64,000 bases of DNA from Promethearchaeota archaeon. GTDB lineage: Archaea > Asgardarchaeota > Lokiarchaeia > Sigyniarchaeales > SOKP01. A program made the translations under genes and the position numbers. Of this stretch, positions 4,369-55,269 are shown piece after piece. The notes beneath the pieces were generated by a model. That model saw nothing but the letters and a program-made list of their open reading frames with translations, ran no database searches and was not told where the DNA came from. Each line of letters opens with the position of its first letter. The first letter of the stretch is position 1. Location of the stretch: positions 1,164,943 to 1,228,942 of the forward strand of contig JAHPZA010000006.1 of the NCBI GenBank assembly GCA_019058445.1. The letters run 5' to 3'.

Positions 4369-6510
4369 TTAATTTTTGCCTTTTAACAATTCATCTGCGG
4401 TTAGAAATTGAGAGGACCGATACCTTTTTCGCGTTTTTGTTATATTCTTATCAATATGGTTTTGATTTAATATTGTGGGATGGTTAGTTGTTAAATTATT
4501 GGAAAAATCTATGAGTTCATATAAAGAATTATCTAATTCGCTTACAAAACGAGAAGGTTTAAGAAAGTTCATTCTTTTATAGGACTGTGTTGATTTTGGA
4601 GATATTAAGAACAACTCATCTCTTGCTCTGGTGACTGCTACATAAAAAATTCTTCTTTCTTCTTCAATATCTTGTTCCTCTTTTGTAATATATGTTGTTG
4701 GAAAGAGTTTTTCTGATAATGAAATGATAAACACAATATCCCATTCTAGTCCTTTGGCCTTGTGAATAGTAGATAATACTATCCGATTATCATCATCTTC
4801 CTTATGAGTTGTTTCTTTTACACTGTTTGATAATTCCGAGATATTTAAGTTTAAATGGTCTATAAAGCCACTAATTGATTTAAATTCGAGGGATAATTCA
4901 AAAACAGCATCAATATCTGCTAATCTCTCTTTAAAATTTTCAAAATTTTTTTGGATATATGGCTTTATTGACAATCTTATTTTCTGAATCACTAAAGAGG
5001 GGGTAGATTCAGAATTAAAACTTTTAAAAGATTTCAAGTAATTAATTAGATTAGTAAAACCCCGTTTTGAGAGTTTTATTTTATTTAACTCAGATTCGTA
5101 TAAATCAGATTTATTTAATTCTCTGATCGGATCTCTTAATTTTATAATTGTTTTAAAAATTTCCCGAGAAGAAACCTTTCCTATATTTGGAATAATTTTA
5201 AAGATGCGATTCCAAGACAACTCATCATAGGGATTAAAAATGATTCTTAAGTGAGCAAGTAAATCCTTGATATGGGCTTGCTCGAAGAAAGAGACTCCTG
5301 AACGGACTACAAATGGTATAGCATTGGCCTGAAGTTCTTTCTGTAAAATAATCGAATGGAAATTTGATCTATATAACACAGCTATTTTTGATAAATCAAT
5401 CCCCTCGTTCATATAATTTAAAATTTTTTGAACGATAAAACGTGCTTGTTCCCTTTCGTCGAAAATTACAACATATTTTGGTTTAACACTACTTTCCCTC
5501 ACCGTTTTCATAGTTTTTTGAAATTGAATTCTATTGTTTTTTATTGAATTATTAGCTAAATCTAATATTTCAGGGGTAGAACGATAATTGTATGTAATTT
5601 TGTGTTTAGTTATGTTTTTTAATTTTTCTCCAAAATTGAGGAGGTTTTTAAAATCAGCACCGCGAAAACTATATATGCTTTGTGCATCATCGCCAACAAC
5701 CATAATATTTTGATTAATTTGAGCAATTTTGAGAATAATTTCAGCTTGCATGAAATTGGTATCTTGATATTCATCAACTAAAATATGTTTGATTTTTTCT
5801 GCGATATTTTGAGCGATTTCTTTTTCATCAAGTAATCTATTCCATAAAACAAGTAAATCATTGAAATCAACCAAGTTATTCCTGATTTTACGTTCATTAT
5901 AGTTATTAAAAATCACTTCAAAATGAGTTATTAAGCTTTCTTTTAATAAATATGGATATTTCCATTTTAAAACTTGTTTAATAGTTCTATTTGTATTAAT
6001 CTTATATGATAATATTTTAAAACAACGCTTAGCGTTAGGGAAGTTCATTAATTTATAATTAGGGAGCGATTCTTCAATAGACAATTTCATCAAGGAGTAG
6101 GAATCAGTCTGATCAATAATGGTATATCTAGGCTTTAATCCAGCTAAATGAGTATATTTTCTAATAAACCTATTAGCTAAAGAATGAAAAGTTCCCCCCC
6201 ATATACCGTTAGGTTCTTCACCTAATAACGTTTTAACTCTTTCGAGCATTTCTTTTGCTGCTTTATTAGTGAAGGTAACGAGCATTATTTCTGAGGGTTG
6301 TACTCCCCGTTCAATTAATTTAGCTACGCTATAGGTAATAGTTCTTGTTTTTCCGGAACCAGCTCCTGCTATTACTATCATTGAGCCGTTAATATTGTTA
6401 ACAATTTTAAGTTGTTCCGGATTTAAATTGTTTTTAAATGAAACTTTATGGATAGTATGAGAAATGCTTTTATGGGATTTACTTTTATTCTGATTAGTGA
6501 ATTTCTCCAT
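4369..6510 (-). CDS. uvrD: UvrD/PcrA-family SF1 DNA helicase
   Basis: AGAGSGKT, TFTNKAA, VDEYQD, GDDAQSIYSFRGA, NYRS, STIHKAKGLEW, EERRIFYVAVTRA; ATG at 6510 lies just after the mcm stop. Confidence 0.93.
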   Translation of the reverse strand: MEKFTNQNKSKSHKSISHTIHKVSFKNNLNPEQLKIVNNINGSMIVIAGAGSGKTRTITYSVAKLIERGVQPSEIMLVTFTNKAAKEMLERVKTLLGEEPNGIWGGTFHSLANRFIRKYTHLAGLKPRYTIIDQTDSYSLMKLSIEESLPNYKLMNFPNAKRCFKILSYKINTNRTIKQVLKWKYPYLLKESLITHFEVIFNNYNERKIRNNLVDFNDLLVLWNRLLDEKEIAQNIAEKIKHILVDEYQDTNFMQAEIILKIAQINQNIMVVGDDAQSIYSFRGADFKNLLNFGEKLKNITKHKITYNYRSTPEILDLANNSIKNNRIQFQKTMKTVRESSVKPKYVVIFDEREQARFIVQKILNYMNEGIDLSKIAVLYRSNFHSIILQKELQANAIPFVVRSGVSFFEQAHIKDLLAHLRIIFNPYDELSWNRIFKIIPNIGKVSSREIFKTIIKLRDPIRELNKSDLYESELNKIKLSKRGFTNLINYLKSFKSFNSESTPSLVIQKIRLSIKPYIQKNFENFKERLADIDAVFELSLEFKSISGFIDHLNLNISELSNSVKETTHKEDDDNRIVLSTIHKAKGLEWDIVFIISLSEKLFPTTYITKEEQDIEEERRIFYVAVTRARDELFLISPKSTQSYKRMNFLKPSRFVSELDNSLYELIDFSNNLTTNHPTILNQNHIDKNITKTRKRYRSSQFLTADELLKGKN

Positions 6511-39378: not shown

Positions 39379-39480
39379 GGGCCTGTAGATCAGTGGAAGA
39401 TCATTGATTTCTGCCTCATAAATCAATCTTACGCTTGACTCGCATTCAAGAGGCCGCGGGTTCAATTCCCGCCAGGTCCA
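39379..39480 (+). tRNA. tRNA-Ala(CGC) with a 30-nt intron (39403-39432) at position 25/26
   Basis: Acceptor GGGCCTG/CAGGTCC with G3:U70; D stem GATC/GATC; anticodon stem CTTGA/TCAAG with CGC at 39441-39443; T arm GCGGG-TTCAATT-CCCGC; BHB motif at the intron ends. Confidence 0.92.
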
Positions 39481-54423: not shown

Positions 54424-54693
54424 ATGGAAAAAGAAGAAGAATCCCTGGATGATTTGAAATATCTTTTAGGTAATATGGGAATTGAGATATTATTAGCAAT
54501 TGACCGTGGAGCTAAGGACTTTGAAACAATAAAATTATTTTCAGGTGTACCCCTCTCCTGTATTAAGGGTAGAATTCCTGTGTTGATAGATTTGAATTTA
54601 ATTCAGAAAAAAAATAATGAGTATTCATTAAAAGAAAAGGGTCGAAATTTTAAAAAAAAATTAGAAAGAAAAAAAGATTTCAAAATGGAATAA
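54424..54693 (+). CDS. Small winged-helix protein
   Basis: ILLAI...FETIK...RIPVLIDLNLI...YSLKEKG. Confidence 0.7.
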   Translation: MEKEEESLDDLKYLLGNMGIEILLAIDRGAKDFETIKLFSGVPLSCIKGRIPVLIDLNLIQKKNNEYSLKEKGRNFKKKLERKKDFKME

Positions 54694-54701
54694 GGTTAAG
54701 C

Positions 54702-54778
54702 TTATATTTCAGATTGGGGCGACATTATCATAGTTATGAGCTGTAACTCAATTTGTCACAATTTCATCATCAATATAA
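54702..54778 (-). ncRNA. C/D-box methylation guide sRNA (D guide predicted for 23S rRNA Gm2251)
   Basis: Minus strand: TTATATT-G-ATGATGA(C)-12 nt-TTGA(D')-hairpin-ATGATAA(C')-TGTCGCCCCAAT-CTGA(D)-AATATAA, with a 7-bp terminal stem. Confidence 0.85.
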
Positions 54779-54780
54779 AT

Positions 54781-55269
54781 TTAAACTTTCTTATTTTTAG
54801 GTTTTTTAGTATTTAATTCTTTTTTATAATACTTTTCCACATAATAACCGGGTTTTTTAAAACCTCCACTTTCTTCAATAAGGTTTTTTAAACCATCCTT
54901 TTGAGATATTTTGTTCTTGAAATCTTCATATTCATTAACTTTTAACTCTTTTTTTTTTAATAAATAATCTAAAATCTCAAAAGCTTCTTCATTTGTGGTA
55001 CATCTACGAATAAAATCAATTGCCCCGGGATCACTCAATTCATTTAAGTTGCATATTTTGGATTGTATATCCCGCTTTTTGGTTGTATTTTCAATATCTA
55101 ATGCAACAGAATCAATTTTTAGGGCTTTTTTCCCATTAGTAATTTCAGAAATCAAGTGAGGTATAAATTTTTCTAATTCTTTCTTGTCATAGGACACGTT
55201 CAATCCGTTTTTTTCTTTTATTTTTGCTTTTTTAAAAGACTTCGTGTCTTTATTCTTTTTATCACTCAA
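54781..55269 (-). CDS. DUF2095-like conserved archaeal protein
   Basis: PHLISEI; PGAIDFIRRCTTNEEAFEILDYL; KKPGYY. Confidence 0.75.
   Translation of the reverse strand: MSDKKNKDTKSFKKAKIKEKNGLNVSYDKKELEKFIPHLISEITNGKKALKIDSVALDIENTTKKRDIQSKICNLNELSDPGAIDFIRRCTTNEEAFEILDYLLKKKELKVNEYEDFKNKISQKDGLKNLIEESGGFKKPGYYVEKYYKKELNTKKPKNKKV

Follow-up and report, generated by a model that had tools for sequence, protein, structure and literature searches.

Between two convergent genes of a low-GC, Loki-type Asgard archaeon (Promethearchaeota) known only from metagenomes, 77 nt of the minus strand carry the sequence elements of a box C/D guide RNA. The locus lies in a 64,000-nt stretch of DNA that was analysed as a whole (the window) and raises two questions, namely whether a guide RNA is really encoded there and to which nucleotides its two antisense elements would direct 2'-O-methylation. 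The flanking genes and the parts of the RNA are given below in window coordinates, following the RNA from 5' to 3'.

54781..55269, minus strand: DUF2095 gene, 162 aa (Pfam PF09868, E 6.5e-09), with 2 nt between the end of its stop codon and the sRNA stem
54702..54778, minus strand: the whole box C/D sRNA, 77 nt, read directly from the sequence and scored at 97.2 bits by covariance model R1
54772..54778, minus strand: 5' arm of the terminal stem, UUAUAUU, C-stem of the terminal K-turn, pairing with 54702-54708 (7 of 7 pairs with compensatory changes among 15 relatives)
54764..54770, minus strand: C box AUGAUGA, with the core AUGAUG invariant in a 15-sequence alignment
54752..54763, minus strand: 12-nt D' guide AAUUGUGACAAA, complementary to the 5' strand of 23S helix 89 in 9 contiguous bp (guide and target covary in families f1, f2 and f3)
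54748..54751, minus strand: degenerate D' box UUGA, NNGA in nearly all relatives with the GA conserved, directly abutting the internal stem
54733..54747, minus strand: internal hairpin GUUA(C)-AGCUC-(A)UAAC with compensatory changes, C-stem of a full C'/D' K-turn
54725..54731, minus strand: degenerate C' box AUGAUAA, GA conserved in relatives; with the one nucleotide before it, U-A-U makes a 3-nt bulge
54713..54724, minus strand: 12-nt D guide UGUCGCCCCAAU, complementary to the 23S P-loop, positions 3-11 pairing with the organism's own P-loop
54709..54712, minus strand: D box CUGA, invariant in the 15-sequence alignment
54702..54708, minus strand: 3' arm of the terminal stem, AAUAUAA, covarying with the 5' arm
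54424..54693, plus strand: convergent winged-helix gene (HTH_45-like), 89 aa, Pfam match just below cut-off

Architecture and genomic setting

The RNA has a C box of the form RUGAUGA near its 5' end, a D box CUGA near its 3' end, and between them D' and C' boxes that would provide a second L7Ae site, together with two spacers of the usual length of about 12 nt (both exactly 12 nt in the source genome). An earlier note on this DNA had listed these boxes, a GTTA/TAAC hairpin, two 12-nt guides and a 7-bp terminal stem, and all of these parts were located in the RNA. Its description of the C and D boxes as perfect stands, whereas the D' (UUGA) and C' (AUGAUAA) boxes proved to be degenerate.

The terminal motif has the layout expected of a canonical K-turn, from which tandem sheared G.A pairs are inferred. 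The 7-bp stem abuts CUGA on its 3' side, and the other strand consists of the stem, then G-A-U, and then GA; direct reading of the sequence places a single spacer G between the 5' stem arm and the C box. The internal motif repeats this arrangement, with the GA of the D' box followed by a stem of 4-5 bp and a return strand in which one nucleotide plus A-U (the 3-nt bulge) precedes a GA, so that the C'/D' pair is predicted from sequence to be a complete K-turn and not a K-loop. The arms of the internal hairpin are GUUA (54747-54744) and UAAC (54736-54733); the source genome forms 4 pairs only, and among the relatives compensatory changes occur in 4 of the 5 aligned pairs with 94.7% of cells paired.

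Two further pairings within the RNA were considered and set aside. The D' guide core, GUGACA, and the 5' portion of the D guide, UGUCGC, are complementary to each other, and the segments concerned (54752-54759 with 54719-54724) are paired in the minimum free energy fold. Although 91% of cells are pairable across 15 homologs, the columns are invariant and the helix is uninformative; the complementarity might account for the conservation of D-guide positions 10-13, or might be coincidence. Intramolecular hairpins of the D' spacer (AAUU/AAUU, CUCUAU/AUAGAG and the like) fall in registers that differ among lineages, and pairing with GAGU, AGG or GGG of helix 89 explains the same nucleotides better.

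The sRNA fills the 87-bp gap (54694-54780) between the two convergent genes and lies 8 nt from the end of the winged-helix gene. It was earlier described as starting right after the DUF2095 stop on the same strand, which agrees with the 2-nt gap found. The winged-helix gene flanks the sRNA in 24 of the 25 loci examined, and a DUF2095 gene could be recognised in the f3 locus and all 14 loci of family f1, but in none of the f2 loci, which span roughly 2 kb. Orientation is less constant than place: the sRNA follows the DUF2095 gene on its strand in the window and in 13 of 14 f1 loci, and follows the winged-helix gene in one relative of the same family (G016), in the f3 locus and in nine of ten f2 loci. 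The occurrence of both strands with the place kept implies at least one in-place inversion.

Across loci the distance from the upstream stop to the C box ranges from 10 to 128 nt and is 10 nt in the source genome. Most archaeal C/D sRNA genes have no promoters of their own and lie within 25 nt of, or overlap, open reading frames, and, given intact box motifs, the sRNAs mature from longer transcripts (Tripp et al. 2017, as summarised in PMC7994747). By analogy with this known biology, and fitting the tight spacing, the sRNA is probably processed from a read-through transcript of the upstream gene; an own promoter is possible where the upstream gap is long.

Conservation and relation to known guide RNAs

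A strict C/D finder accepted a sequence only if it had both a C and a D box, 4 bp or more of terminal stem, and GA motifs like those of the D' and C' boxes at 10-13 nt. Across the 4.6 Mb of the genome it picked out three sites, namely the present locus and a weaker match that occurs in two identical copies and resembles repeated coding sequence; on the reversed genome it picked out nothing. For the remaining C..D box pairs of the genome, guide-match distributions were alike for real and control sequences, most of the pairs thus being coding sequence.

BLAST recovered homologs of the RNA in most genomes of the genus and family. An alignment of 15 sequences shows no variation in the C-box core AUGAUG, in the D box or in the core of either spacer, and both helices covary, with 93.9% of cells paired and changes on both sides in 11 of 12 pairs. 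None of 500 shuffles equalled this, and slid controls were 33-45% paired. Covariance model R1 found exactly one copy in 126 of the 151 genomes of the order (112 of 131 in f1, 12 of 14 in f2, 1 of 1 in f3 and 0 of 4 in f4) and a single marginal match among 123 genomes from other families of the phylum. Measured from stem end to stem end, the RNA is about 64-82 nt long in relatives. The proteins of a C/D RNP are encoded in the same genome: fibrillarin (PF01269, 258.8 bits) and Nop5 (PF01798, 203.1 bits), whose genes adjoin each other, and two proteins of the L7Ae family (PF01248, 82.4 and 49.2 bits). The covariation, the order-wide conservation in single copy and the presence of the protein machinery genes, all drawn from genome sequence, strongly support a box C/D identity, as the earlier note had proposed, and the stretch is almost certainly a real, unannotated 77-nt guide RNA.

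Most public records that contain the RNA bear titles of Promethearchaeota or Promethearchaeia MAGs, and the public sequencing runs listed as containing the locus are all of DNA, from sediment, soil and wetland metagenomes. Contig DATKTW010000128.1, in a MAG titled 'Candidatus Nanopelagicaceae bacterium', carries the sRNA at 4975-5062 with 87.9 bits and is probably a mis-binned Asgard contig. Several matches titled Thor-, Hermod-, Odin- or Hodarchaeota score like those of f1; GTDB-based sampling places the RNA in one order only.

No Rfam family passes in gathering mode at this locus. The best sub-threshold match is snoR31_Z110_Z27 (30.3 bits against a threshold of 45), and the weak matches are to C/D snoRNA families only. 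One of them, at the D-guide segment, is yeast snR67 (RF01177), a eukaryotic C/D snoRNA guiding the P-loop Gm; it scores 11.9 bits against a gathering threshold of 55 and arises because the antisense sequence is shared. Elsewhere in the window, the only gathering-level Rfam match is a tRNA on the plus strand (39379-39480), whose length of 102 nt suggests that it contains an intron. Two more candidates with a compact archaeal C/D layout were noticed in the genome, on the minus strand of contig C1 (reverse-complement offset 176696) and on the minus strand of contig C7 (offset 29874). The D guide of one matches 23S CUCGAUGUCGGC (10 bp) and that of the other CUGUUUAAUAAA (10 bp), and both loci are, by their sequences, likely further C/D sRNAs.

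Compared with the sR families of Pyrococcus, Sulfolobus and Pyrobaculum, the RNA has the same order of C, D', C' and D boxes, two 12-nt spacers, the N+5 geometry, guides antisense to rRNA with two close targets in one rRNA domain, a place next to an open reading frame, and a host encoding L7Ae, Nop5 and fibrillarin. It differs in its length of 77 nt against about 60, its 7-bp terminal stem, a D' spacer that varies from 12 to 20 nt among relatives, and above all in its C'/D' motif, a full K-turn on a covarying hairpin of 4-5 bp where theirs is a K-loop, the form typical of archaeal sRNAs (PMC7994747; PMC7229835). Guides for the equivalent of E. coli G2251 have been predicted in three archaeal species (alignment position G2520; Dennis et al. 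2015, PMC4644070). These are of the same guide class and address the same P-loop nucleotide of helix 80 but belong to thermophilic model archaea, and the likeness, drawn here by target, may reflect homology or convergence.

In eukaryotes the corresponding nucleotide is also a target of RNA-guided methylation, Arabidopsis 25S-Gm2620 being listed as snoRNP-guided (PMC11542601). The eukaryotic P-loop snoRNAs resemble the Asgard RNA in directing modification (predicted here) of the same universally conserved G and in their greater length, terminal stem and degenerate C'/D' boxes; their P-loop flanks differ, and there is no evidence of common descent. Bacteria modify the same nucleotide with a protein-only enzyme that uses no guide RNA, the stand-alone Gm2251 methyltransferase RlmB of E. 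coli (PMC11542601). A table in the same 2024 review equates Gm1950 of H. marismortui with E. coli Gm2251, but its own source gives E. coli 1909 (PMC2584109), and this entry was set aside. Full-text searches of the literature found no description of Asgard C/D sRNAs. The class of RNA is known; what is new is the Asgard family, its order-wide conservation, the helix 89 target and the strand flip.

Antisense elements and the 23S rRNA

Within the source assembly the rRNA is partial. The 23S is present from about 1 to 1000 at the start of contig C7 and from about 2017 to its end at the end of contig C1, the latter piece being recognised as archaeal LSU rRNA by Rfam (813 bits), and of the 16S only the termini are present. 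A profile search of this genome with RF02540 and RF01959 gave no match, although the partial 23S is there. The rRNA genes stand at the ends of contigs C1, C6 and C7, where the assembly breaks. Full rRNA scans were made in G016, which carries the sRNA and complete 16S and 23S genes (4.6 kb), and the 16S and 23S positions 1000-2017 were scanned in this relative only because the source copy is unassembled. In G016 the two genes (contig C27, 176242-177736 and 248908-252060) lie about 71 kb apart and are unlinked. Both targets were numbered by alignment to the annotated E. coli 23S.

The organism's own P-loop reads GCUGGGGCGGCU (end of contig C1), and D-guide positions 3-11 pair with it in 9 contiguous bp, of which position 10 is a G.U. 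Outside this core, position 1 forms a G.U, position 2 sets A against C and position 12 is mismatched. At N+5 lies the second G of UGGGGCG, the equivalent of E. coli G2251 in the numbering of the literature, and it is Watson-Crick paired. The earlier note had named this nucleotide as the target and assumed a perfect 12-nt complement; the target and its N+5 position are borne out by the 9-bp pairing, while 4 of the 12 positions differ from the assumed complement. It had also set at least 9 bp with the organism's own P-loop as a test, a threshold that the 9 bp, one G.U included, just reach. The perfect complement of the guide, AUUGGGGCGACA, was found in the genome only at the sRNA locus itself and is absent from the rRNA; matches to it with one mismatch lie inside open reading frames at chance frequency and were not retained as targets. 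In archaeal RNPs at most about 10 nt are recognised and substrates of 9-10 bp are modified efficiently, with selection acting on guide positions 3-11 as the core; pairing beyond them is under no selection or is even disfavoured (PMC7229835).

In the 16S and 23S of G016 no site other than the P-loop has a 9-bp run that covers N+5, and no other is paired throughout positions 3-11. When the D guide was shuffled, 29% of sequences reached a 9-bp run anywhere in rRNA and about 8-10% reached the exact 3-11 register, and D-guide complementarity alone is accordingly weak evidence (p of about 0.1). Conservation adds to this. Among 49 homologs, selected by covariance model or BLAST and not by guide sequence, positions 3-11 are nearly invariant and position 1 is free (U in 31, A in 12, G in 6); near-invariance across the order implies a very conserved target.

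Family f2 provides a natural change in the target, its helix 80 stem having covaried to GGUGGGGCGCCA. In 12 f2 orthologs, those that share the standard D-box register, guide position 2 is a C that faces the new G; the exception is G046, which has one extra nucleotide before the D box. Ten orthologs with an intact C-tract form 8 contiguous Watson-Crick pairs at positions 2-9. Two divergent members have GGCG instead of GUCG, matching the CGCC of f2 when judged on the f2 consensus P-loop, which was assumed for them; the C-tract is mismatched in both and the boxes are degenerate in one. Other details fit the P-loop less well: U10 is conserved in f2 though mismatched, A2 is conserved in f1 though facing C, and the D guides of two f1 genomes (G017 and G023) are weakened or shifted. 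Taken as complementarity and conservation together, the D guide is probably directed at G2251 of the P-loop.

Searches for another target of the D guide were made in several ways. A conserved UGGGGCGAC target was discarded, as about five matches per genome were found in five near-complete genomes, in unrelated contexts. No tRNA target exceeded 7-8 bp among 23 parsed tRNAs, an incomplete set. In another Asgard family a candidate P-loop guide (G202) pairs at 13 of 13 positions with its own P-loop, but its period-3 conservation is that of coding sequence and eight relatives fail to conserve its boxes, and it was attributed to chance.

For the D' guide, positions 2-10 in the source genome pair with its own 23S GUUGUCACGAGU in 9 contiguous bp, one of them G.U. 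The site, in the 5' strand of helix 89, closely follows the GUAACAG segment of the peptidyl-transferase ring on its 3' side, and N+5 aligns with about E. coli U2460. In both guides, then, the N+5 nucleotide of a stable RNA is paired. An AT-rich insertion of about 125 nt interrupts the source 23S at about E. coli 2442 (contig C1, minus strand, about 640-775 nt from the end) and ends about 15 nt upstream of the D' target. It is absent in all 15 relatives with a recovered 23S, folds stably (z = -2.5), and could be an rRNA intron or a mini-expansion.

The D' target is invariant in 10 of the 11 f1 genomes in which it was recovered, G016 having one A-to-G change; it reads GUUGUCGCAGGC in f2 (GUUGUCACGGGC in G038) and GUCGUCGCGGGC in f3. 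The guide tracks these differences, with ACUC or ACUU against GAGU in f1, UCCU against AGG in f2 (UCCC against GGG in G038) and CGACGAC against GUCGUCG in f3. Ten contiguous pairs are formed in each of G020 and G023, and in G011, where the organism's own 23S was not recovered, 12 of 12 pairs are possible with the f1 site. Duplex energies mostly favour the guide's own family (means of -12.9 against -9.5 kcal/mol across families), and for the f3 guide the value is -20.3 kcal/mol with the f3 site but -10.9 with the f1 site. On this covariation of sequences the D' guide very likely targets helix 89, a target newly assigned here and a new aspect of the family.

The D' spacer is 12-13 nt long in 19 of 37 parsed homologs, which place the same U at N+5, and 14-20 nt long in about half, so that N+5 no longer falls on U2460 in the latter; the D spacer stays at about 12 nt. 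In genus g2 and a few others, whose D' spacers measure 15-20 nt, an insertion of 3-8 nt separates the antisense block from the D' box with helix 89 complementarity retained. Going by their spacer lengths, these lineages would methylate either a different nucleotide or none.

Competing readings and significance

On the anatomy, the covarying helices, the conservation, the protein genes, the complementarity to the organism's own 23S and the covariation of the D' guide with its target, the locus is likely to encode a dual-guide C/D sRNA with two K-turns that methylates one site in the P-loop and one in helix 89 and is cut from a read-through transcript. One K-turn would consist of the terminal stem and boxes C and D, the second of the D' box, short hairpin and C' box; L7Ae would bind both, and Nop5 and fibrillarin would complete the RNP. 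Pairing of D-guide positions 3-11 with the P-loop in helix 80 would set the second G of UGGGGCG (G2251) at N+5 for 2'-O-methylation, and the D' guide, by pairing with helix 89 on its 5' strand, which in E. coli numbering follows the P-loop by about 210 nt, would do the same for the equivalent of U2460, the U five nucleotides into GUUGUCAC. Both predicted sites belong to domain V and to its peptidyl-transferase region. The RNA itself would be released from a transcript that reads through from the upstream gene, and assembly of the RNP would protect it. From these data we infer the methylation, the nucleotide modified and the route of biogenesis.

One alternative keeps the C/D sRNA and its D' guide on helix 89 as functional but takes the D guide to be an orphan or to be aimed at another RNA. 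A 9-bp match with p of about 0.1, the conserved A2 and U10 for which the P-loop does not account, and the absence of the perfect complement AUUGGGGCGACA from rRNA all speak for it, as does the report that about 28% of Pyrobaculum guides are orphans (PMC7994747). Yet near-invariant positions 3-11 call for a very conserved target, of which no other was found in five near-complete genomes or in the tRNAs, the position-2 change of f2 matches the change in its P-loop, and the register is that of the known core pairing region, which leaves this reading unlikely. It appears less probable still that the RNA serves mainly as a chaperone or tether that pairs with helix 80 and the 5' strand of helix 89 simultaneously and so keeps two parts of domain V open or together while the ribosome is assembled, with methylation secondary or absent on the D' side. 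Such a role has been published as an idea for dual guides with nearby targets (PMC7994747), and the displaced D' antisense block of g2 and others, with helix 89 complementarity kept, suggests selection on pairing and not on a fixed N+5; the 12-nt D spacer and an exact N+5 on a nucleotide methylated in bacteria and eukaryotes favour catalysis on the D side, and a 12-13-nt D' spacer is kept in 19 of the 37 parsed homologs.

The position of the sRNA, 2 nt past one stop codon and 8 nt from the end of the convergent gene, also admits a cis element of the flanking mRNAs, that is, a K-turn in a 3' UTR that binds L7Ae and regulates the DUF2095 or winged-helix gene, or else a chance motif. Binding of L7Ae to mRNA K-turns has reportedly been observed. 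However, an element in the UTR of a single gene would not switch strand between lineages and still keep its internal organisation and both antisense blocks, as this one does. The conservation of the guides, their covariation with rRNA and the lack of any such motif in the reversed genome also speak against it, and this explanation is very improbable.

The favoured reading of a dual-guide methylating sRNA leaves the known working of C/D RNPs unchanged and adds no new mechanism. A bolder and rather doubtful proposal is that the RNA is mainly a two-handed tether of the peptidyl-transferase region, with P-loop and helix 89 bound together and selection acting on pairing. If true, it would account for the helix 89 complementarity in lineages with a displaced D' antisense block, and the long terminal stem, full internal K-turn and variable spacer would make the RNA an intermediate between compact archaeal sRNAs and eukaryotic snoRNAs with accessory pairing; the in-place strand flip between convergent genes would then show, in a natural case, that a host transcript is all that such RNAs require.

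For the methylating sRNA as proposed, the family provides an example that spans an order and whose two targets are both placed in the ribosomal catalytic core, in a group whose guide RNAs are barely catalogued. Covariance model R1 can annotate the RNA in about 85% of the genomes of the order, and the two complete K-turns, the variable D' spacer and the in-place strand flip are natural variants for studies of sRNP assembly and promoter-less biogenesis. The P-loop G is modified by a dedicated enzyme in bacteria and by a snoRNP in eukaryotes, and with this family it becomes testable whether RNA-guided methylation at this nucleotide predates eukaryotes in their closest archaeal relatives.
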